Origin: Minisyncoccota bacterium
GTDB lineage: Bacteria > Patescibacteriota > Minisyncoccia > UBA6257
Direction: 5' to 3'
Assembly (NCBI GenBank): GCA_028694995.1
Contig: JAQVJU010000001.1
Location: 80,492-144,491, forward strand
Length of the DNA: 64,000 nucleotides
The number at the start of each line of letters is the position of its first letter. Position 1 is the first letter of the stretch. The position numbers were made by a program, and so were the translations under genes. Under the pieces are notes generated by a model that was given only the letters and a program-made list of their open reading frames with translations, had not been told where the DNA came from and made no database searches. Positions 8,970-64,000 of this stretch are shown one piece after another.

Positions 8970-9785
8970 TTGTCAAAACACACTATGTCATTTATTAAAC
9001 AAAAAAAATTAGGTCAGGTTTTTCTTAAAGACCAGTCTTTTGTTAATAAAATCATCAAAGCAGGGCAAATTAATGAAAAGGATTTGGTTTTAGAAATTGG
9101 CGCTGGAAAAGGAATTTTAACCCAAGCATTGTTAAAAACTAAAGCTCAAGTCATTGCTATTGAGAAAGACCCAGGGCTTGTAAAATTTCTTAAAAAACGA
9201 TTTAAAAACAATTCAAATTTAAAAATTATCCAAGGAGATATTAGGGATTTTTTAATTTCTGATTCTCAAATCCTAAAATCTAATTTTAAGGTTATAGGTA
9301 ATATCCCTTATTATTTAACCTCACATTTAATCAAGTTATTATTAGAATTAGAAAAACAACCAAAGGATATTATTTTAATGATTCAGAAAGAAGTTGCTCA
9401 AAGAATAATTCAAAAACCTTCAAAAATGAATTTATTAGCTATTTCTGTTCAATTTTATGCTCATGCTAAAATTATTTCCTATGTGCCTAAAACTGCTTTT
9501 TCTCCAAAGCCAAAGATAGATTCAGCAATTATACAAATCACTCCTTTTATTGATATTAAAAGGACAAAGGCTGCTAAGCAATCTTTTTTTAAAATTGTTA
9601 AAGCTGGTTTTAAACAACCAAGAAAGCTTTTAATTAACAATCTTTGTTTAAATCTTAAAATTGACAAAAAGATTATTGAAAAATCTTTTAAAAAACTAAA
9701 TCTGCCTTTAAATATCAGGGCTCAAAACCTATCTTTAGACCAATGGACTTGTTTATCTTTATTATTAATAAATAATAAGTTATAA
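8970..9785 (+). CDS. rsmA: 16S rRNA (adenine1518/1519-N6)-dimethyltransferase
   Basis: It has KsgA motifs (LGQVFLKD, the SAM-binding LEIGAGKGILT, and NIPYYLTSHLI). Confidence 0.85.
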   Translation: MSKHTMSFIKQKKLGQVFLKDQSFVNKIIKAGQINEKDLVLEIGAGKGILTQALLKTKAQVIAIEKDPGLVKFLKKRFKNNSNLKIIQGDIRDFLISDSQILKSNFKVIGNIPYYLTSHLIKLLLELEKQPKDIILMIQKEVAQRIIQKPSKMNLLAISVQFYAHAKIISYVPKTAFSPKPKIDSAIIQITPFIDIKRTKAAKQSFFKIVKAGFKQPRKLLINNLCLNLKIDKKIIEKSFKKLNLPLNIRAQNLSLDQWTCLSLLLINNKL

Positions 9786-9821: not shown

Positions 9822-12209
9822 ATGAAAATAAAAAATGTATTTAAAATTGGGATTTTTGGCACTATCCTTTTGTTTTTATTAATAAGTCCTGTTTTTAAAT
9901 TCAATAACTTACAAGCATCTGCCTATACTTGCACTGAAGCTGGAGGAACATGTCGAGCAGGATGTAACAATGACGAAAAACCTGAATCACGGCTTACTTG
10001 TGCAGGTAGTTTCTTAAATACCAATTGTTGTGTCTCTGAGAAATTTAATTATGAACTATGGGTAGGGCAGCAAGAACTAAAATTACAACCTGTCTGTGTG
10101 CAAGCAGGATACATATGCAGGACCGCTTGTCATCAAGGAGAAGAAAGCATACAAGGGAATAACCTTTGCCCTATAGGACAAATGTGTTGTATGAATATTG
10201 CCACTGACAAGTTTCATCGAGAAGGATATGTTGAAGATGTGACTGGTACGGCTCAAGAATCAAATGCTGCAAAAATTTGTAATGCTCTTTTTTATGGAGG
10301 TGAAGACCCAAAAAGTAGGTTTGCTGAAATTTGGGGATGGGTAACAGGAGATGAAAACGCAAATGATACTTGGTGGGCACATAAAGCTTGTTTGGTTCAA
10401 ATAGGAGCTATTGAAGGACTTGGAAAAATGATTGGTGGAATGATTAATACATTAACAGGAAATATTCTTTGGGCTTTAAACCCTGATACTTATGGAGGGT
10501 TTGTTAAAAATCCTGGGGTAGTAGCAATTTGGGAAATCTTAAGAAATTTTATGAATTTAGCCCTTGTTTTAATCTTAATAATTATAGCTATTGCAACTAT
10601 TTTAGGAATTAAAAAATACCGCTGGCAAGACATCCTTTGGAAATTCATAGTTATTGCCTTACTTATTAACTTTAGCTTGGTTTTACCGGGCATAATATTA
10701 GATCTTTCTCAATTTACTACTTATGTATTCTTGAATTTATCTCGAGAAGCAACTGGCCAAAAAGATATTGCCCAAGCAATCATGGATAATTTTGCCACTA
10801 ATGAAATTTCAGGTGTTAAAAAATATAATTTTGCTTATGATGACAAAGCTGAAATTAAAACTATAACTGTAGAAGGGCAAGACATTAAGATGAGCACAAA
10901 AGGTTGGGGTCTTTCTTGGGGTAATTTCCTTCTTATTATCGCTGCCTTAGGTATAATTGGATTGTTTGTTTTTATCTCTTTAATCGCTATTTTCTTTGTT
11001 ATGGTTGCCCGGTCTTTTCTTATTATTATCTTACTTGCTGTTTCACCTATTGCTTTTGCTGCATGGGTATTGCCAAATACTGAAAAGTTTTGGAATTTAT
11101 GGTGGGGACAATTTTCTAAATGGTGTCTTTTTCCTATTACTTTTGCCATTTCTTTGTATGCAGGACTTGTTGTTGTATCTGAAATGAATGTTTTCCTTGC
11201 AAATCTTGGCGCTCAAGAAGAAAAATTAGGTATTATCACAATGATTATTCAAATAGTTCTCTTTTCTATGTTTTTAATTGGAGGATTAATTGTTTCAATC
11301 CAAAGTAGTGGCGCTGTGGGAAAAGTGGTTCAAAAACAAGTTAGTCGAGCTGGATGGCTTGCTGGAGCCTTTGTTGGGGCTAAAACAATTAAGGGAATTA
11401 AAGAAACTGGAATGTATAAAAAAGCAGGTGAAGCTTTGACTCATGTTCCTTTATTAAAAGGTGTTGGCCAAGAAATGTTAGTCACTGGAGAAAAAGCTAA
11501 GGCGACTAGAGTTAAAGAGTATGAAAAAGGCTTAGAGAATATAAGCTTGGGTAGCTTAAAGCAACTTGAAAAAGCTCCTTTACCATCTTCATTGGATAAA
11601 AATGCCTATGAAAAAAGAATTGCTTTGGTTAATAAATTAGCCGAGATGGGAGAATTAGGGGATGAATCTACGAAATTTATCAATCTCCATAAAGACGATG
11701 TTAGATTTAATAAAAAAGCTATCACTGAAGCAATTCCCCATGAATTTAAGGTAGAGGGAGGAAAATTAATTAATACCCCAGATTCAGTAGAAGAAAAAGT
11801 AGCAACTTTAACTTCATTAAAACCTGATAAATTAAAAGATAAAACCCAATTAAAAGATTTTGTTGAAAAAACTATAGACAAAGAATACCAAAAATCCATT
11901 GAGCAAGGAGCTTGGTTGCCCCATGAAACAGAAAAAGCCATGGAAGAAGCTTATGATAAGGTTTTCCAATCTTTAGTTAAAAAATTCTCAGCCTCACAAA
12001 TGGCTGCTTTTTGGAAAGGTTTAGGACCCAAGTATTTTAACGAAGAAAGACAAAAACTCTTTATAGAGTCAGTTAAGAGAGATCCTGCCGCATTAGCAAA
12101 ATTCAATAAACACATCAAAGATTCCCGGGCGCTAAGAGAAGAAAGTGGCATTGATCTAGAAAATACGCCTGATGCTTCAGCATGGGATAACATTTTTAAA
12201 GAAGAATGA
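9822..12209 (+). CDS. VirB6/TrbL-like polytopic membrane protein with N-terminal signal peptide and two tandem 6-Cys modules
   Basis: The 795 aa protein has a signal/anchor, then two C-x6-C-x3-C-x11/12-C-x5/8-CC modules, then at least 6 TM helices (aa ~230-500) and a charged C-terminal tail. It heads the T4SS-like cluster. Confidence 0.5.
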   Translation: MKIKNVFKIGIFGTILLFLLISPVFKFNNLQASAYTCTEAGGTCRAGCNNDEKPESRLTCAGSFLNTNCCVSEKFNYELWVGQQELKLQPVCVQAGYICRTACHQGEESIQGNNLCPIGQMCCMNIATDKFHREGYVEDVTGTAQESNAAKICNALFYGGEDPKSRFAEIWGWVTGDENANDTWWAHKACLVQIGAIEGLGKMIGGMINTLTGNILWALNPDTYGGFVKNPGVVAIWEILRNFMNLALVLILIIIAIATILGIKKYRWQDILWKFIVIALLINFSLVLPGIILDLSQFTTYVFLNLSREATGQKDIAQAIMDNFATNEISGVKKYNFAYDDKAEIKTITVEGQDIKMSTKGWGLSWGNFLLIIAALGIIGLFVFISLIAIFFVMVARSFLIIILLAVSPIAFAAWVLPNTEKFWNLWWGQFSKWCLFPITFAISLYAGLVVVSEMNVFLANLGAQEEKLGIITMIIQIVLFSMFLIGGLIVSIQSSGAVGKVVQKQVSRAGWLAGAFVGAKTIKGIKETGMYKKAGEALTHVPLLKGVGQEMLVTGEKAKATRVKEYEKGLENISLGSLKQLEKAPLPSSLDKNAYEKRIALVNKLAEMGELGDESTKFINLHKDDVRFNKKAITEAIPHEFKVEGGKLINTPDSVEEKVATLTSLKPDKLKDKTQLKDFVEKTIDKEYQKSIEQGAWLPHETEKAMEEAYDKVFQSLVKKFSASQMAAFWKGLGPKYFNEERQKLFIESVKRDPAALAKFNKHIKDSRALREESGIDLENTPDASAWDNIFKEE

Positions 12210-13243
12210 AAAAAGAAGAGTTCTTAAAAAAATTTGATGTTTTGCCAAAATCTCTCCAAGAAGCTCTTTATTCTGATAAAGTTATTTCTATCATCCAAGA
12301 CGCTGGCTCGCTTGCTGATTTAAATGAACAAGAGTTATTTATTTTAAATGAAATTGTTACTGATGTTCTTTTATTGAATATTTCTTCTGATGATTTTGTG
12401 ACAGAGTTAGAGTCTCGTTTAAAAATCAAGGATTCTTCTTTAAAGATTATCCATCAAATAATTCAAGATAAGATTTTTAATCAATACAAAAAAGAATTAC
12501 TGCAGTTTAAATCCAGGCCAATCACTTCTTTAGAAAAACCGCCAATGCAATTCAAAACACCAATTCTAGATAGTTTTGAAAAAAAACCTAAAAAAGAACT
12601 CTCTGAAAAAAATCAAATTACAAAAATTGATATTCAATCTGTTGCAGACAAAATAAAATCAGAGATAATAAAAGAACCCCTAGATCAATTCACTATACCT
12701 CAACCCAAAATTATTGAACCAAAAACAGAAAAACCTAAAGTAAAAATTACCGAATCAGAAATTACTAAACCTGAGCCAATTCCTGAATACATTACTCCTG
12801 AGCCAACAGAAATTAAAGTGACAAAACCAATAAATAAAGTAGAAGCGCTTAAAAAAGTTACCATACCAGAAACAACATTAATCAAACAAGAAAAAATCCG
12901 TAATAAATTGTTAGAAGCCATTACTAAAAAAGACACTCAACCTAAAATTGTAGAAGAAATAAAAAAAGTTTTAAAATCTAAAAAAGAAGATAAAGAAACA
13001 ATCGAAGAAAAACCTTTAGAGAAAAAGAAAACACCAGAAACAGAACCTTCCACTGTTTTGACAGGTAAAGGAGAAGAATTTAAAAGTGAAAAACCAATTC
13101 AAAAATCCACTGATAAAAAACCCTATGTTTTGGATGTTAAGTTACAAGAGATGAAAAAAAGATCAAAGGAAAAAGAGTTTGATCCTAAGCCAGTTCAATA
13201 TGAAAAGTATAAAAAGGAAAGTCCTTTTGGAAAAACATCATAA
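12206..13243 (+). CDS. K/P/E/T-rich low-complexity protein (T4SS-cluster associated)
   Basis: There are no TM segments and the protein is built of repetitive KP..E..K segments. The gene overlaps the upstream gene by 4 nt (operon). Confidence 0.35.
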   Translation: MKKEEFLKKFDVLPKSLQEALYSDKVISIIQDAGSLADLNEQELFILNEIVTDVLLLNISSDDFVTELESRLKIKDSSLKIIHQIIQDKIFNQYKKELLQFKSRPITSLEKPPMQFKTPILDSFEKKPKKELSEKNQITKIDIQSVADKIKSEIIKEPLDQFTIPQPKIIEPKTEKPKVKITESEITKPEPIPEYITPEPTEIKVTKPINKVEALKKVTIPETTLIKQEKIRNKLLEAITKKDTQPKIVEEIKKVLKSKKEDKETIEEKPLEKKKTPETEPSTVLTGKGEEFKSEKPIQKSTDKKPYVLDVKLQEMKKRSKEKEFDPKPVQYEKYKKESPFGKTS

Positions 13244-14350: not shown

Positions 14351-16147
14351 ATGAAATTACCTTTCTTCTCACGGAAAAAACAAATAAAACCTCAAGAAGC
14401 TATTTATACTGAAGCTTTTTCCACGCTTCAAAATTTAATTGCCCCAGCTGGATTGGAAATAAACACAAATTATCTTAAATTAGGAGAACAATATTGTGCT
14501 ACTCTTTTTGTTTTAACTTACCCAGATTATTTAGCCTCTAATTGGTTTTCTTCAGTTATTAATCTTGATGAGTCTTTTAATATTTCTATCTTTTTCCATC
14601 CTCTTGATATTAATAAAGTTTTAAGAAATTTAAGGAAAAAATCTGCGGAAATTCAAGCTCAGATTAACATTGAAGCTGAAAGAGGATTGGTTCGTAATCC
14701 TTTATTAGAAGCAGCTTTATCTAATGTTGAAAAATTAAGAGATACGATCCAACAAGGCAGTGAGAGATTGTTTGACGTTGGTGTTTATATCACTTTTTTT
14801 TCTAATAGCCAGGAAGGGCTTTCAAAAGTAGAGAGTAAAATCCGAAATATATTAGAACAACAACTTATTTATGCCAAACCTGCTGTTTTTAGGGAATTTG
14901 AGGGATTAGAAAGCACTATGCCTCTTGGAGTTAATAGATTACTTTTAACCACACCTTTAAATTCTCAACCAGCATCTACTCTTTTTCCTTTTTCTTCTTT
15001 AGATCTTTCAGATAATAAAGGGATTCTTTATGGCATTAATATTCATAATAATAGTTTAATAATTTTTGACCGTTTTTCTCTTCCAAATGCAAATATGGTG
15101 GTTTTTGCTCAAACTGGAGCTGGAAAAAGCTATGCTATTAAATTAGAAATTCTCCGTTCCCTTTTATTAGGCACTAATATTTTAATCATTGATCCGGAAA
15201 ATGAATATCAATATTTAGCTGAATCAATTGGCGGCAGCTATTTTAATATTGCCGTGGCTTCTGAAGATAATATTAATCCTTTTGAATTGCCTCTGGTAAA
15301 AGAAGATGAGGAAACAAATGAAGAAGTTTTTAGAAACCATGTTTTGAGTCTTATTGGACTTATCAAATTAATGCTTGGCGGATTAACTCCACAGGAAGAA
15401 TTGATTTTAGATCAAGCCATTATTCAAACTTATGCCAGTCGGGATATTTTTCCTGAAAACATGACTGAACAAAAAGCACCACCTTTAATGGAAGATCTGG
15501 AAAATGTTCTTGAGAATATTGAAGGGGGAGAAGATTTAGCAGCTAAACTTTATAAATTCACTAAAGGGACTTATGCTGGTTTTCTTAATAAACAATCAAA
15601 CATTGATATTAATAACCGACTGGTTGTTTTTGGCATTAGAGAACTAGCAGATGAATTAAGACCTATTGCCATGTATGTTGTTTTAAACTATATCTGGACA
15701 ATGATAAAGAAAGACCTTAGAAAAAGAATTGCTATTATTGATGAAGGTTGGTGGCTTTTAAATCATGAAGAAAGCGCTTCTTTCTTGTTCAGTTTAATAA
15801 AAAGAGCCAGAAAATATTATTTAGGAGTCACCTTTATCACCCAAGACATTGAGGACGCCTTAGCTTCTCCTTATGGCAAACCTATTATTACTAATTCCTC
15901 TCTATCATTATTGCTTCGTCAATCTCCAGCAAATATAGAAATAATTGGCAAGGCTTTAAATCTTACTGAACAAGAAAAAACAATTCTTTTACAATCTCCT
16001 GTAGGCACTGGTTTGTTTTTTGCCCAAGAAAAACATGCGGCCATTCAAATTGTAGCTTCTTATGCAGAAGACCAAATTATCACCTCAAATCCTGCTCAGC
16101 TTTTAGCTATTAAAGAAGCGAAAAAACAATTAAAATCTGAGTCTTAA
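14351..16147 (+). CDS. VirB4/TraC/CagE-family T4SS ATPase (middle plus C-terminal ATPase domains)
   Basis: It has Walker A FAQTGAGKSYAIKLEIL and Walker B IAIIDEGWWLL. It also carries the VirB4 middle region (YCATLFVLTYPDYLASNWFSSV). Confidence 0.8.
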   Translation: MKLPFFSRKKQIKPQEAIYTEAFSTLQNLIAPAGLEINTNYLKLGEQYCATLFVLTYPDYLASNWFSSVINLDESFNISIFFHPLDINKVLRNLRKKSAEIQAQINIEAERGLVRNPLLEAALSNVEKLRDTIQQGSERLFDVGVYITFFSNSQEGLSKVESKIRNILEQQLIYAKPAVFREFEGLESTMPLGVNRLLLTTPLNSQPASTLFPFSSLDLSDNKGILYGINIHNNSLIIFDRFSLPNANMVVFAQTGAGKSYAIKLEILRSLLLGTNILIIDPENEYQYLAESIGGSYFNIAVASEDNINPFELPLVKEDEETNEEVFRNHVLSLIGLIKLMLGGLTPQEELILDQAIIQTYASRDIFPENMTEQKAPPLMEDLENVLENIEGGEDLAAKLYKFTKGTYAGFLNKQSNIDINNRLVVFGIRELADELRPIAMYVVLNYIWTMIKKDLRKRIAIIDEGWWLLNHEESASFLFSLIKRARKYYLGVTFITQDIEDALASPYGKPIITNSSLSLLLRQSPANIEIIGKALNLTEQEKTILLQSPVGTGLFFAQEKHAAIQIVASYAEDQIITSNPAQLLAIKEAKKQLKSES

Positions 16148-58753: not shown

Positions 58754-59437
58754 ATGTCTTCTCAGCAAGAATTGATTCAAGAAACAATTGATCTTGGTTA
58801 TTTAAAATCTCCTCAGATTATAGAGGCTTTTTTAGCTATAGACCGAAAAGATTTTGTTATTCCTGAAAACCAAAATGAAGCTTATTTAAACACTCCTTTA
58901 TCAATAGGTTTTAGTCAAACAATTTCTCAGCCTTTAACAGTTGCTTTTATGTTGGAATTGTTACAACCCAAGATTGGGGATGTGGTTTTGGATATTGGTT
59001 CTGGCTCTGGGTGGACTAGTGCCTTGCTTTCATATTTAGTAAGTGATGGCGGAAAGAATAAACAAGGAAAGGTAATTGCTATTGAAAGAATTTTAGAATT
59101 AAAAGAATTTGGTGAGAAAAATACAGCAAAATACAATTTTGTGGAGAAAAATATTATAAAATTTTTTTGTGCTGATGGTTCTAGGGATATATTAAAAATC
59201 AGTCAACAGCTTGATTTAAAAGAAGGATTTGATAAAATTCTTTGCTCAGCAACATTAGAACAAATGCCTCAAGAATGGATAGATTTATTAAAGACAGGAG
59301 GAAAAATTGTTGCTCCTTTTCCTGGAGAAATTCAGCTCTGGGTTAAACAAGATAAAAATACTTTTAAAAAAGAATTTTTTAAGGGATTTAGTTTTGTGCC
59401 TTTGATTTCTGATGATAAAGAATCCAGTTGTTTTTAA
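58754..59437 (+). CDS. pcm: Protein-L-isoaspartate O-methyltransferase
   Basis: It has the SAM motif VLDIGSGSGWTSALL and a C-terminal FVPL. Confidence 0.85.
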   Translation: MSSQQELIQETIDLGYLKSPQIIEAFLAIDRKDFVIPENQNEAYLNTPLSIGFSQTISQPLTVAFMLELLQPKIGDVVLDIGSGSGWTSALLSYLVSDGGKNKQGKVIAIERILELKEFGEKNTAKYNFVEKNIIKFFCADGSRDILKISQQLDLKEGFDKILCSATLEQMPQEWIDLLKTGGKIVAPFPGEIQLWVKQDKNTFKKEFFKGFSFVPLISDDKESSCF

Positions 59438-59459: not shown

Positions 59460-60215
59460 ATGGTGTTGAATATTAATAAAGATAAATACAGTATTCCTTT
59501 TGATTCTCGCAATATTACTTTATCAGTTTATGCAGGTGCTGGTGGTCGTGATGCTGAAGATTGGGCATTGATGTTACTGCGGATGTATCAAAGATATGCG
59601 GAAAAGAAAGGATGGAAATTCATTTTATTAGATAAGAAAGAAAATGAATTTGGCGGCATTAAACATGCAATAGTAGAGATCATAGGAAAGAATATTTATC
59701 AGATTTTTAAAAATGAAAATGGAGTGCATCGTTTAGTAAGAATTTCTCCTTTTTCTGCAGCAAAATTACGTCATACATCATTTGCCTTAATTGAAGTTTT
59801 ACCAATGATAGAAGCTAAGGAATTACCTTTGGATGAAAATGATTTAGAAATTGAGACTTTTCGTTCTTCAGGTCCAGGTGGGCAAAATGTTAATAAGGTG
59901 GAAACGGCTGTTAGGATTACTCATAAACCAACAGGAATAGTTGCTAGTTGTCAGGCAGAAAGATTGCAATCAAGGAATAAAGAAAAGGCAATGGCAATTT
60001 TAAGAACTAAATTGCATCAATTAGCTGAACAAGAAAAAGTAAAAACTTTAGCTGAATTAAAAGGCAAAAAAATCAAAATTGAATGGGGGAGTCAGATTCG
60101 TTCTTATGTTCTTCATCCATATAAAATTATCAGAGATGAAAAAACTGGTAAAAAATGGTCTAATATAGTAGAAGATGTATTAGCAGGTAATTTAGATTTA
60201 ATCTATAATATTTAA
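59460..60215 (+). CDS. prfB: Peptide chain release factor 2, N-terminally truncated (domains 2-4 only)
   Basis: It has the SPF tripeptide (VRISPFSAAKLRHTSF) and GGQ ([19 protein letters not shown]). At 251 aa it aligns to RF2 residues ~110 to the end. There is no room upstream for domain 1 or a frameshift site. Confidence 0.8.
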   Translation: MVLNINKDKYSIPFDSRNITLSVYAGAGGRDAEDWALMLLRMYQRYAEKKGWKFILLDKKENEFGGIKHAIVEIIGKNIYQIFKNENGVHRLVRISPFSAAKLRHTSFALIEVLPMIEAKELPLDENDLEIETFRSSGPGGQNVNKVETAVRITHKPTGIVASCQAERLQSRNKEKAMAILRTKLHQLAEQEKVKTLAELKGKKIKIEWGSQIRSYVLHPYKIIRDEKTGKKWSNIVEDVLAGNLDLIYNI

Positions 60216-60915: not shown

Positions 60916-61824
60916 ATGTTTGTAATCTTAAAAAGAATTTTTCGCACTGCCTGGCAAGGTTTAATTAGAAACAATTGGCTTTCTATTGCTTGTATTTCAA
61001 TGTTGACAATAAGCTTGATGATCTTAGGATCAATTTTAATCTTTAATAATGTTAGCCATAATTTAATTGATGTTTTAGAAGAGAAAATGGATGTGAGTAT
61101 TTATTTTAATCGAGAAGTGCCTGAAGAAGATATTTTAAAAATTAGAAATGAACTTATTGGTAATGATAAGATTGCTAAAATTGAATATGTTTCTCAAGAG
61201 GAAGCTTTAAAAAGATTTGAAGAAAAAAGCAGTCAGAATCAAACCATTATGAAAGCTTTAGAAGAATTGGGAGAAAATCCTTTAGTGGCTTTTTTAAGTA
61301 TTAAAGCTAAAGATACATCTTATTATTCAGAAATTATTGAAGAAGTTAATAATTCTTCTTTTAAAGATAAATTAATGACTGTGGGTTTAGCGGAAAATCA
61401 GAGAGTAATTGAAAGAATTAATGCTTTGTCTAAAGGAATAAAATTTGGTTCTTTCTTTATTATTATCATTGCTACTATTTTGAGTGTTTTAATTAGTTTT
61501 AATACAATTAGAATGGCAATTTATTCTTTAAGAGGAGAGATAGAGATAATGAAATTAGTTGGGGCTTCTAATTGGTTTATCAGAGGGCCATTTCTTTTAG
61601 AAGGAGCAATTTATGGATTAACTGCTAGTGTTTTAGCTATAGTTATTTTCATGCCTTTGGTAATATGGATAAGTCCAAAATTAGAAACTTTTGTTTCAGA
61701 AATTAGCATTAGTTCATATTTTTGGTCACATTTTTGGTTTATTTTTGGTATTCAGACTTTATTTGGTATTGGTTTAGGAATGATTGCAGGTTTTTGGGCA
61801 ATGAATAAATACTTAAAAGCATAA
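60916..61824 (+). CDS. ftsX: Cell division permease FtsX
   Basis: It has four TM helices with a large first periplasmic loop and follows ftsE. Confidence 0.8.
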   Translation: MFVILKRIFRTAWQGLIRNNWLSIACISMLTISLMILGSILIFNNVSHNLIDVLEEKMDVSIYFNREVPEEDILKIRNELIGNDKIAKIEYVSQEEALKRFEEKSSQNQTIMKALEELGENPLVAFLSIKAKDTSYYSEIIEEVNNSSFKDKLMTVGLAENQRVIERINALSKGIKFGSFFIIIIATILSVLISFNTIRMAIYSLRGEIEIMKLVGASNWFIRGPFLLEGAIYGLTASVLAIVIFMPLVIWISPKLETFVSEISISSYFWSHFWFIFGIQTLFGIGLGMIAGFWAMNKYLKA

Positions 61825-61828
61825 AGAT

Positions 61829-61902
61829 TGCGGGGTGGTGTAAAGGTAGCACGTCTCCCTTTGGAGGAGAAGATCGGGGTTCGAGTCCCTGCCCCGCAGC
61901 CA
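61829..61902 (+). tRNA. tRNA-Gln (anticodon UUG), CCA encoded
   Basis: TGCGGGGTGGTGTAAAGGTAGCACGTCTCCCTTTGGAGGAGAAGATCGGGGTTCGAGTCCCTGCCCCGCAGCCA has an anticodon stem TCTCC/GGAGA and a loop CTTTGGA. Confidence 0.7.
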
Positions 61903-61935
61903 ATTAGAGCCAGCTCAAAGATAGGAAAATACCTT
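61897..61935. repeat. 39-bp imperfect direct repeat copy 1 (overlaps last 6 nt of tRNA-Gln); copy 2 at 63005-63043
   Basis: CAGCCAATTAGAGCCAGCTCAAAGATAGGAAAATACCTT matches CAGCCAATTAGGGCTAGCTTAGAGATAGGAAAATACCTT at 35 of 39 positions. Confidence 0.7.
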
Positions 61936-61951
61936 TGAAAGGGTATTTTTT
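61926..61951 (+). terminator. Intrinsic terminator after tRNA-Gln
   Basis: AAATACC-tttgaaa-GGGTATTT is followed by TTTT. Confidence 0.6.
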
Positions 61952-62056
61952 GTTATTCAAGGTAATTTACTATATACTATAAATATATTGGTAAATTACC
62001 ATAAAGTTGAGCTAAAGTTTAGGATGTATATTTAAATTAAGTAATATAATAAATAA

Positions 62057-62704
62057 ATGAGTTATGGAAGACGAAAATGGGAACAGTCTCAGATGGTAAA
62101 TTGGAAAAAGAATGAGGATGAAATATCTTCTTTCTTTGGGCGATTTAATTTAGATGTCAGAGATTTATATAAACACGTTATGAGCATAGATTATGATAAG
62201 ATGCAGGCAGTTTGTTATTTATTAAGTAAAATAGATAAAGCCATAAAAATATGCGATTTCTTGGATGGGTTAGAAAGGGGTAACCATGAAGATGTCGATG
62301 TTATAAAAATTTATATTTTAGTATCTCATGCTGAGATTTCATCACGAAGTTTAGGCAAGGAAAAAACAGGAATAAAGCTTGTTAAGGAATTTTTTAGTCC
62401 CGTAGCATCAAGCTTAAAGCACAGGATAAAACCTAGCCTTATAAGTAAAAAGAATCTCAATTTGAATTTTGCCGATATCTTATACAAACTAAGATGTGAA
62501 TACACACACGAAGGAAATTATACGGGTAGAATCTTTAAAAGAAAAGAAGATGGAAAGTGTTTTCTTTCCATTCGTTTTAAGATCGATGATGAGTATTTTT
62601 ATGGAAAGTGCGATCTTGCGTATAAGGAGTTTATTGAAATTTATATGGAAGCTTTAATCGAAAACATAAAAAAATTCTCCAATTATGGAAAACAAAGCAA
62701 ATAA
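62057..62704 (+). CDS. Hypothetical protein (215 aa) with HEPN-like R-x4-H motif
   Basis: It has LRCEYTHEGNY (R-x4-H) within a predicted helical protein. There is no confident family. Confidence 0.35.
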   Translation: MSYGRRKWEQSQMVNWKKNEDEISSFFGRFNLDVRDLYKHVMSIDYDKMQAVCYLLSKIDKAIKICDFLDGLERGNHEDVDVIKIYILVSHAEISSRSLGKEKTGIKLVKEFFSPVASSLKHRIKPSLISKKNLNLNFADILYKLRCEYTHEGNYTGRIFKRKEDGKCFLSIRFKIDDEYFYGKCDLAYKEFIEIYMEALIENIKKFSNYGKQSK

Positions 62705-62993
62705 TATAAGGAATGAATTTTTAAGAAAATTTACTGATTTAGAAAAACATGGTTTTTACGATTTTGTTGAATTCGGTGGAAAAATTATTGGATTTACCAT
62801 AAAGAAAAAACTAAAAAGGGAAAAAGAGAATGCAAGTATGATAGCTGCGGGTATTTACAACGAAGAATCACCAGAAAGAACCCCTTTATACATCAATATT
62901 ACTTATGGCAAAGAAAAAAATGAAAGAATTGCAGTGCGTCTATGGGAGACATGTCTAAAATTACCTAATTTACCCTCACAAAAGAGGTTTTAG
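62685..62993 (+). CDS. Hypothetical protein (102 aa), overlaps upstream gene by 20 nt
   Basis: ORF only; it is a likely operon partner. Confidence 0.3.
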   Translation: MENKANNIRNEFLRKFTDLEKHGFYDFVEFGGKIIGFTIKKKLKREKENASMIAAGIYNEESPERTPLYINITYGKEKNERIAVRLWETCLKLPNLPSQKRF

Positions 62994-63004
62994 GCCGATT
63001 GGGA

Positions 63005-63043
63005 CAGCCAATTAGGGCTAGCTTAGAGATAGGAAAATACCTT
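63005..63043. repeat. 39-bp direct repeat copy 2 (putative attR-like site)
   Basis: See copy 1 at 61897-61935. Confidence 0.7.
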
Positions 63044-63106: not shown

Positions 63107-64000
63107 ATGAATGAATTAATTAAATTTATGGAAATTAATAATCAACAATCCATTGGTAGGGTTAGAAAAATAAATCCACGACAGATATGGAAGCATGAAT
63201 CCAAAGATTTTACTCCTTGGCTTGCAGAAAATATTGATTATTTAAATGATATCTTGGATATGGATATTGCGGTTCAAACTGTTGAGGGAAGTGTTGGGCC
63301 ATATTCTGTCGATATTTATGGTGAAGATAGTTCTGGTAACAAAGTTATCATAGAAAATCAATTAGAAAAATCTGATCATGCGCACCTTGGTCAAATATTA
63401 ACATATTTAGTTAATCTTGATGCAAATACTGCAATATGGATAACAACAAACCCATCAGAAGAACATCAACAAGTTGTTGAGTGGCTAAACGAAATTACGC
63501 CCGATGATATGTATTTTTATTTGATTCAAATAGAAGGTATTACAATAGAAGGTCAGGAATCTGTTGCCCCATTATTTACTATAATAGAAGGGCCAACTGA
63601 AGATCGAAAGAAAATTGGAGCAGAAAAGAAAGAGCATGCACAAAGGCATGCTGTTCGCCAGCAGTTTTGGTCACAGGTCATTAATGTTATGAATGAAAAA
63701 AATAATTTATGTCAAAATGTTAGTCCTAGTACGGATTCATGGATTGGTATTGGATTAGGCATATCGGGTGTGAGCTTAAATCTCGTAGTGTCACAAAGTT
63801 ATGCGCGTTCAGAAATATATATAAATAGAGGGGATAAACAAGAAAATAAGAAAGTCTTTGATTACTTTTTCAACTTGAAGGACAAAATTGAAAAAGATGT
63901 CGAAGATGCTCTTATTTGGAGGCGAATGGATAATAATGTTACTTCTCGTATACAATACCAATTAGATGGTGTAAATATTACTAATGAAAACGATTGGCCA
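63107..64000 (+). CDS. DUF4268-family protein with N-terminal PD-(D/E)xK-like nuclease region (3' partial; open to window end)
   Basis: Manual translation begins MNELIKFMEINNQQSIGRVRK.. and has VDIYGEDSSGNKVIIENQLEKSDHAHLGQILTY (D...E.Q-type nuclease motif) and a C-terminal KVFDYFFNLKDKIEKDVEDALIWRRMDNNVTSRIQYQ like the DUF4268 signature. Confidence 0.45.
   Translation, partial: MNELIKFMEINNQQSIGRVRKINPRQIWKHESKDFTPWLAENIDYLNDILDMDIAVQTVEGSVGPYSVDIYGEDSSGNKVIIENQLEKSDHAHLGQILTYLVNLDANTAIWITTNPSEEHQQVVEWLNEITPDDMYFYLIQIEGITIEGQESVAPLFTIIEGPTEDRKKIGAEKKEHAQRHAVRQQFWSQVINVMNEKNNLCQNVSPSTDSWIGIGLGISGVSLNLVVSQSYARSEIYINRGDKQENKKVFDYFFNLKDKIEKDVEDALIWRRMDNNVTSRIQYQLDGVNITNENDWP

Follow-up and report, generated by a model that had tools for sequence, protein, structure and literature searches.

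Behind a tRNA-Gln gene near the end of a 64-kb window of Patescibacteria DNA (contig JAQVJU010000001.1; the window is the whole stretch that was analysed), two overlapping genes are bracketed by 39-nt direct repeats, and the locus raises the question of how these genes came to lie there and which of them still work. The initial annotation, made from the sequence alone, described a defence islet in which a two-gene toxin–antitoxin or abortive-infection (Abi) pair stands between attL/attR-like repeats. Our analysis favours a different reading, which we consider probable: that the bracketed genes are a decayed cassette with which a mosaic defence island begins, that this island is anchored at tRNA-Gln, and that the repeats belong to a duplicated trailer unit. 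Neighbouring loci and relatives are labelled L001, L005, L011 and so on, and L001 positions are converted to window positions by adding 60120. Contigs from four other samples have the identical arrangement, and the sequence reaches 10.8 kb past tRNA-Gln. The genome is present in the samples ENA ERZ27247361 and ERZ27250894 and JGI 3300014206 and 3300028602.

A duplicated trailer unit behind tRNA-Gln

The gene order at the end of the window is a prfB-like gene, ftsE, ftsX (60916–61824) and tRNA-Gln(ttg), followed by the repeats and the elements associated with them:

61829–61902, plus strand: tRNA-Gln, anticodon TTG, with encoded CCA (ARAGORN; Rfam tRNA, 64.5 bits); the anchor of the island
61897–61935, plus strand: repeat R1, 6 nt of the tRNA end and 33 nt of trailer
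61920–61954, plus strand: intrinsic-terminator hairpin of tRNA-Gln, with a 10-bp core stem (61926–61935/61940–61949) and then a U-run
61946–62025, plus strand: element B, 80 nt, promoter-like (TTGTTA-17-TATACT at 61950–61978)
63005–63043, plus strand: repeat R2, 35/39 identical to R1 and equivalent to the 5' half of the cassette's own terminator

As first described, the two 39-nt repeats bracket the two genes; they agree at 35 of 39 positions and start 1108 nt apart. A degenerate version of the 39-mer matched only these two places in the window, and none of 100 dinucleotide-preserving shuffles gave any match; the repeats are real and are no product of chance. The first bases of R1, CAGCCA, are the final 6 nt of tRNA-Gln, and its other end falls within the 5' arm of a plausible intrinsic terminator, whose hairpin has a folding energy of −11.7 kcal/mol (z −1.9; RNA folding). 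R2 lacks the 3' arm, and RNA folding detected no comparable hairpin behind it (z −0.5). These features of the repeats were all correctly read in the initial annotation.

Element B, which directly follows the tRNA terminator, recurs with 83% identity as B' (L001 4090–4169, approximately 64210–64289). This second copy is situated beyond the window end, after a DUF4268 gene and just upstream of a methyltransferase gene, and both promoter-like hexamers are kept in it. The duplicated unit is thus larger than the 39-nt repeat: it spans ~130 nt and consists of the tRNA 3' end, the terminator and the promoter. The DUF4268 gene splits its second copy: R2 precedes the gene and B' follows it. No further copies of R or B were found in the window or in the 10.8 kb past tRNA-Gln, nor, other than the R-like copies reported below, in the loci used for comparison.

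The bracketed genes form a truncated cassette

The sequence between the repeats has an 80%-identical copy behind an unrelated tRNA-Gln in another Patescibacterium from the same samples (L005), and comparison of the two copies defines the cassette and what has been lost from it:

62021–62939, plus strand: cassette block 1, aligned by blastn with L005 7957–8883 at 80% DNA identity and starting ~35 nt before the ORF-A start codon
62057–62704, plus strand: open reading frame (ORF) A, 215 aa, predicted HEPN-superfamily protein in which helix 2 carries E93-x3-R97 and helix 3 ends with R146-x4-H151
62685–62993, plus strand: ORF-B', 102 aa, a truncated remnant in which residues 1–85 represent the N-terminal domain of a ~300-aa protein
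62940–62945, no strand: deletion junction, at which 749 bp of L005 (8884–9632) are missing from the window
62946–63004, plus strand: conserved 3' flank of the cassette, CTAAAATTACCTAAT ... GGTTTTAGGCCGA ..., corresponding to L005 9633–9690 and L011 11825–11880

On the far side of the junction, a second blastn block aligns window 62946–63041 with L005 9633–9727 at 76% identity. The missing 749 bp cover the C-terminal two thirds of ORF-B together with the start of its 3' untranslated region. Over its whole length, ORF-B' aligns with the first 104 residues of a 305-aa L005 protein (63% identity) that is encoded directly after the L005 homologue of ORF-A; the two frames overlap there too, as they do, by 20 nt, in the window. 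The last 17 codons of ORF-B' are former 3' untranslated region. Homologues of ORF-B are 292–319 aa long in 10/10 cases, and the full-length protein has a strongly hydrophobic C-terminal region (residues 228–288) that is presumably transmembrane. The ratio of nonsynonymous to synonymous substitution rates (dN/dS) for the remaining 85 codons is 0.47, a relaxed value, and ORF-B' is most likely a non-functional remnant. The proposed two-gene toxin–antitoxin or Abi pair was therefore not borne out on this side: its smaller member is the stump of a ~300-aa membrane protein.

Nor is the pairing itself conserved. ORF-A and ORF-B occur together only in the window and L005 lineages, and ORF-B contains no nucleotidyltransferase (MNT) or other known antitoxin domain. 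The gene after the ORF-A homologue varies by locus, encoding 184 aa in L009, 269 aa in L060, 210 aa in L068, 138 aa in L065 (where a DUF4238 gene comes next) and 186 aa, with an RNNLAH motif of its own, in L011 and L061. Conversely, some ORF-B homologues have no ORF-A beside them and instead follow CBASS genes, AbiEii or a Hypoth_Ymh gene. Because the pairing is not conserved, a dedicated toxin–antitoxin pair is not supported.

Two of these loci have features of their own. In L011 (8638–9198) and L061 (8629–9183), the ~185-aa protein with R-N-N-L-A-H, which has no Pfam or PADLOC match, overlaps the end of the ORF-A homologue, and a pair of two different HEPN-like proteins is possible there. 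A Moranbacteria mobile element (L071 1316–6897) encodes an S24 repressor, a patatin and a SMODS cyclase (CBASS-like), two unknown genes and an ORF-B homologue; the latter occupies a cargo position flanked by a ParB-methyltransferase gene, as ORF-A homologues do elsewhere. The 196-aa gene before this ORF-B homologue was considered as a hidden relative of ORF-A and rejected (hhalign probability 0.1%).

ORF-A belongs to a small family with HEPN-type features

ORF-A carries the sequence LRCEYTHEGNY, from which the initial annotation judged it HEPN-like, and it gave no match at E≤1 in Pfam, PADLOC, NCBIfam or PHROGs. Its sequence is identical to that of a protein from a Candidatus Pacebacteria metagenome-assembled genome (locus tag PHH35_00860), encoded on a 239-kb contig. 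Its family comprises 52 clusters of ~215-aa proteins that, where named, come from Patescibacteria, and a profile search of 1.84 billion proteins recovered only 56 representatives. The family is tiny and, judging by the names of its sources, confined to Patescibacteria. One homologue lies 164 nt behind a tRNA-Ser on a contig labelled 'uncultured Gammaproteobacteria' (L063, CAZJUO010000050.1); given the otherwise Patescibacteria-only spread of the family, this label may be a binning error.

Close homologues have K144, R146, C147, Y149, H151, E152 and G153 in common. In an alignment of 39 family members, reaching down to ~18% identity, R146 and H151 are the only invariant columns, and E93 is nearly invariant within an E-x3-[KR] motif (E93-I-S-S-R97 in the window; consensus AExxxKL). 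The residue following the arginine of R-x4-H is Cys in the window subfamily (RCEYTHEG) and Asn in many distant members (IRNDYIHN, RNEYAH). In HEPN domains as defined in the literature, helix 3 ends with R-x4-6-H, helix 2 bears a conserved acidic residue, often as part of E-x3-[KR], and an insert frequently separates helices 2 and 3 (PMC3710099). An AlphaFold2 model of ORF-A, with a predicted local distance difference test score (pLDDT) of 91 and a predicted TM-score (pTM) of 0.90, has the four-helix up-down bundle core that the definition requires and fits all three of these structural features: R146–H151 is located at the C-terminal end of helix 138–152, E93-x3-R97 in helix 81–98, and helix 105–120 in the position of the insert. 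Searches with single distant relatives of ORF-A gave sub-threshold matches to Abi_2 (0.0024), HEPN_Swt1 (0.04) and HEPN_Apea (0.057), while Foldseek with PDB and BFVD returned nothing under E=0.2 and PDB sequence-profile searches returned nothing relevant. From the alignment and the model, ORF-A is likely to belong to the HEPN superfamily, as a member of a family without a match among current models, and the earlier assignment is upheld.

Like the HEPN RNases of Abi and toxin systems (Abi_2/AbiD-AbiF, AbiV, ApeA and HEPN-MNT toxins), ORF-A has a helical up-down core in which helix 2 carries E-x3-[KR], helix 3 ends with R-x4-H and an insert separates the two, and its family likewise resides in defence or mobile-element neighbourhoods. 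Unlike them, it is without a match among Pfam, PADLOC, NCBIfam and PHROG models, is extended at the N-terminus by three additional helices, carries a beta-hairpin between helices 3 and 4, and shows, in its subfamily, Cys rather than N/D/H after the arginine. It also departs from HEPN-MNT pairs in having no MNT partner beside it and no conserved two-gene pairing.

Relative to the L005 copy, ORF-A has a dN/dS of 0.16 with all invariant residues intact. On account of this value the gene looks functional, and it probably still is. Most likely, the protein would work as a dimer, an RNase that needs no metal, and would cleave cellular RNA upon infection, bringing about Abi-type growth arrest. The loci of its homologues are integrated mobile elements of Patescibacteria, one of them classed as viral in IMG/VR, with ParB-methyltransferase genes, S24 repressors, serine recombinases and DUF4238 defence genes as neighbours. 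In four of ~11 distinct loci, a same-strand tRNA gene lies within 1.3 kb upstream of the homologue (tRNA-Gln in the window and L005, tRNA-Ser in L061 and L063).

A conserved non-coding element marks the cassette end

The homology between the window and L005 runs on past the coding region and takes in both R2 and the 59 nt that precede it. The L005 counterpart of R2 belongs to a complete hairpin with a T-run (9691–9748), the terminator that closes the cassette. R1 and R2 differ at four sites, and L005 has the R2 base at three of these, which identifies R2 as orthologous to the 3' end of the cassette itself. The 3' hairpin arm of R2 is replaced in the window by the DUF4268 segment.

Together with the preceding flank, this end forms an element of ~100 nt with the pattern C[CT]AAAATT[AC]CCTAAT ... 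GTT[CT]TAG[AG]CCGA ... AGC ... TTAG[AG]GAT, followed by the terminator. The element stands at cassette boundaries in three different Patescibacteria: the L011 copy (11825–11935) is 3.2 kb downstream of the ORF-A homologue, and the L005 island contains a second, more diverged copy (15158–15250). The tRNA 3' end plus R1 of the window match the element at 52 of 83 positions, and none of 2000 shuffles was as good. Since an element-like tRNA trailer is present in the window and not in L005, the bracketing repeat exists only in the window genome.

In the element of all three genomes, a T-arm-like 11-mer occurs at tRNA-like spacing from A-G-C(C)A (10/13 match), which hints that the element may have descended from the 3' half of a tRNA-Gln. 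No Rfam family corresponds to it. Several more specific identities were tried and rejected. The Rfam tRNA covariance model did not recognise a pseudo-tRNA 3' half before R2, also when truncated matches were allowed. As a structured non-coding RNA the element fared poorly, with RNAalifold on the three copies giving a positive (penalising) covariation term and one compensatory pair, and DNA folds of both strands in the three genomes gave no indication of an attC-like single-strand hairpin (z −1.4 to +1.3). Two pattern matches in viral contigs showed no further similarity and are attributable to chance. Possible extra copies of the segment before R2, at L001 9612–9646 (25/35) and 10369–10403, are A-rich and unconvincing.

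The element invites comparison with integron cassettes. In both cases cassette homology begins just ahead of the gene (~35 nt before the start codon here) and includes no promoter of its own, a conserved 3' element is present (~100 nt here), and the cassette is positioned downstream of a resident promoter-like element. Unlike in integrons, the element has no attC-like hairpin or covariation, and no IntI-type integrase was seen in the downstream sequence that was followed. It is conceivable, but very improbable, that the element is the recombination site of an undescribed integrase-less cassette system, in which promoterless defence cassettes would be captured beside the tRNA-Gln trailer and expressed from the resident promoter, in the manner of an integron with a tRNA-trailer mimic in place of attC, and mobilised in trans (e.g., by large serine recombinases).

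Two further observations concern the surroundings of the element. A 52-nt terminator–promoter junction in L005 is repeated with 83% identity (9730–9781 and 15221–15272), each copy having an R-like segment ahead of it and preceding a different cassette (EcoRI-methylase/GmrSD in one case, a 246-aa gene and Mrr in the other); islands of this kind may generally contain repeated junction units. In L011, ~400 nt of non-coding sequence just after the element (11990–12400) are GC-rich and hairpin-rich in an otherwise AT-rich genome and contain neither an Rfam match at E≤0.1 nor a tRNA or tmRNA.

The cassette heads a mosaic defence island

The gene that follows R2 extends the locus beyond the two bracketed ORFs:

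63107–64000 and past the window end, plus strand: DUF4268/PDC-S11 gene, 325 aa in full, lying between R2 and B'

Its C-terminal domain matches Pfam DUF4268 (2.4e-30, above cut-off), residues 14–297 match the PADLOC candidate defence family PDC-S11 (PDLC04914, 2.7e-99), and the N-terminus shows a weak NucS-like, PD-(D/E)xK-like match, in agreement with the initial description of a DUF4268/PD-(D/E)xK-like gene. For DUF4268, a possible role in substrate recognition, in association with type IV restriction enzymes, has been discussed (bioRxiv 10.1101/2025.02.28.640651). Compared with other PDC-S11/DUF4268 single-gene candidates, the gene matches end to end and is a typical member.

In the L001 extension, it is followed by genes for an N6_N4 methyltransferase (543 aa) and a ResIII helicase (786 aa), which look like a type III restriction-modification pair (Mod-type), then by a Shedu-domain gene (SduA_C, 380 aa) and a few small genes. 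Within the 10.8 kb, the two islet ORFs, a 193-aa gene and a 149-aa gene lack a Pfam match. Because defence genes continue past DUF4268, the islet is the head of a larger defence island. Rather than being self-contained, it opens a mosaic that is at least 8 kb long, so that the islet as originally delimited gives way to a larger structure.

The mosaic nature of the island is also evident from the methyltransferase–helicase block, which is 81% identical at the DNA level over 4 kb to a block in L075 (L001 4228–8240 versus L075 8001–11998). The homology begins just 22 nt before the start codon, and the L075 block is at a different locus, upstream of prfB-ftsE-ftsX and near another DUF4268 gene, HicAB and an AbiJ-family gene. 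The island has been pieced together from exchanged cassettes. The L075 helicase gene is split into ORFs of 530 and 255 aa and may be a pseudogene.

The tRNA-Gln site is variable among relatives

In ~15 relative contigs, with FtsX 57–81% identical, DNA homology with the window ends at the tRNA-Gln 3' end (blastn boundary at L001 1780–1786, window 61900–61906). Beyond this point, many relatives have 1–8 kb of unrelated sequence and then a recurring gene set. Among the genes behind tRNA-Gln in relatives are obg and genes for proteins of 184, 181 and 141 aa. L014/L015 and L023 have a housekeeping GTPase gene (obg or engB) immediately behind tRNA-Gln, which represents an 'empty' state in the broad sense. 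Large serine recombinase genes with Resolvase, Recombinase and Zn_ribbon_recom domains lie on the opposite strand in L036 (8712–10250, minus strand) and L019 (5245–6072, minus strand) and overlap the tRNA-Gln 3' end by ~60 nt; this suggests elements with the attachment site inside the end of their own recombinase gene. The variable DNA, empty-like states and recombinase genes found at this position in relatives identify the tRNA-Gln site as a genuine hot spot.

The locus resembles tRNA-linked islands built by successive insertion in that it starts at a tRNA 3' end that is included in the repeat, loses synteny at the tRNA, shares cassettes with unrelated loci, and carries a cargo of restriction-modification-type, Shedu-domain, DUF4268 and HEPN genes. 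It differs from typical examples in lacking an integrase over at least 10.8 kb, in having just 6 nt of the repeat within the tRNA (the rest being trailer and terminator), in the splitting of the second repeat unit by a gene and the truncation of the first cassette, and in showing no compositional contrast. The earlier description of a tRNA-Gln-linked defence region without an integrase is thus confirmed.

Variation is also seen on the other side of the tRNA. Inserts of 0.4–0.8 kb are present between ftsX and tRNA-Gln in L016 (4277–5036, with a 231-aa ORF) and L018 (3804–4244), so the 5' side is variable as well. Further upstream, the release-factor gene before ftsE (window 59460–60215) encodes only 251 aa, with the SPF and GGQ motifs present and no space for the usual N-terminal domain, as the preceding ORF stops at 59437. 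Relatives L014, L017 and L018 also have a short release factor (249–251 aa), and L075 has a 335-aa PCRF+RF-1 protein; the gene could be a clade-typical short RF2, or a frameshifted 5' part could have gone unrecognised.

How the locus may have formed

We propose that a mosaic anti-phage island accreted behind tRNA-Gln in a member of Candidatus Pacebacteria (Patescibacteria, also known as the candidate phyla radiation (CPR)), and that the region is the end of this island nearest the tRNA. The first cassette of the island (~62021–63043) would have been acquired horizontally, and in its original form would have comprised the HEPN RNase ORF-A, the ~300-aa membrane protein ORF-B and the ~100-nt non-coding element with its own terminator. 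A cassette ending in such a homologous, trailer-like terminator could have recombined into the tRNA-Gln trailer by a single crossover, whether Campbell-type or site-specific, or assisted by homology, and this putative event would have duplicated the ~130-nt unit. R1 and R2 would then be two homologous trailer-plus-terminator copies, R1 after the tRNA and R2 as the 5' half of the cassette terminator. A later deletion of 749 bp would have removed most of ORF-B, and the DUF4268 gene would have come to lie inside the second copy of the unit by insertion or replacement.

A number of observations weigh against this proposal of a decayed cassette in a duplicated trailer. None of the genes called over the 10.8 kb downstream of tRNA-Gln has a recombinase domain, and integration is not supported by an integrase within that distance, by an excised circle or by an exact empty site. 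The check for an empty site proposed in the initial annotation succeeded for the broad, obg/engB-type state and not for the exact junction, the closest relative available being only 81% identical in FtsX; the closest methyltransferase homologue is at a different locus from the tRNA-Gln site. The tRNA trailers of the closest relatives do not align with R. In L005, the tRNA-Gln trailer has no significant similarity to the element (135 of 2000 shuffles were as good), and without a tRNA-side copy in that genome a simple model of the same element using the same att site fails. The search for extra R copies covered 74 kb of the genome, and the 10.8 kb followed past the tRNA falls short of the distal end of the island. 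GC content is flat over core and island (~0.30, range 0.26–0.37) with no step at the tRNA; the island as a compositional anomaly was rejected on this profile.

The most direct alternative, that R1 and R2 are classical attL and attR sites produced by an integrase crossover in a 39-nt core, the integrase having since been lost or acting in trans, appears unlikely to us. The cassette does lie between direct repeats that start within the 3' end of the tRNA, a T-arm-like 11-mer lies just upstream of R2 at exactly tRNA-like spacing (as in L005 and L011), and the tRNA-Gln is a hot spot with recombinase genes at the same tRNA in relatives. Those recombinases, however, are of the large serine type, and large serine recombinases leave only a 2-bp core and not 39-nt repeats. 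The simple model also predicts host-specific sequence to the right of the distal core and element-specific sequence to the right of the tRNA, whereas the former is conserved between the window and L005 and the latter is not conserved. The two repeats differ at 4/39 positions, no tRNA fragment before R2 is recognised by the tRNA covariance model, the cassette is truncated within a gene, and the second repeat unit is interrupted. The L005 cassette carries the right copy only, with no significant tRNA-side repeat, so the occurrence of the same genes without the repeats, which the initial annotation had named as evidence to the contrary, is seen in part. What stands of the attL/attR proposal is thus the arrangement of the repeats around the cassette and their start in the tRNA.

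Two other explanations seem to us very unlikely. If the bracketed genes were a working toxin–antitoxin or Abi module, a HEPN toxin would be translationally coupled, via the 20-nt overlap, to a 102-aa antitoxin or regulator. The overlap of the frames in both the window and L005, the purifying selection on ORF-A and the richness of the neighbourhood in defence genes would suit such a module, but ORF-B' is a deletion product under relaxed selection, all 10 of its homologues are long proteins with a presumed C-terminal transmembrane region, the partners are found apart outside two lineages, and known antitoxin domains, MNT included, are lacking. The idea that there is no insertion scar at all, R and B being generic terminator and promoter modules whose similarity reflects coincidence or local gene conversion, has marginally less to recommend it. 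It draws on the overlap of R with a terminator, the promoter-like nature of B and the repeated terminator–promoter junction in the L005 island; yet other copies of R or B are absent from the window and the 10.8 kb followed past tRNA-Gln, an identity of 83–90% over 39 and 80 nt far exceeds what shared function would need, and R2 is orthologous to a cassette end in another genome. On balance, the decayed cassette in a duplicated trailer unit remains the probable explanation.

Significance of the locus

These findings do not change current concepts. The structure of the island is of an ordinary kind, and the value of the findings is that of an annotation lead. They also provide a worked example of an apparent 'two-gene module' that resolves into one live gene and a stump, and they leave one loose end that deserves attention, the ~100-nt element at cassette ends. 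The picture of defence systems and mobile elements in CPR/Patescibacteria is still sparse, and the locus adds three points to it: a Pacebacteria clade has an island hot spot at tRNA-Gln, cassettes (the HEPN gene, the methyltransferase–helicase block and DUF4268) are exchanged between co-resident Patescibacteria, and the small HEPN-type family without a family model is a candidate addition to catalogues of defence genes.

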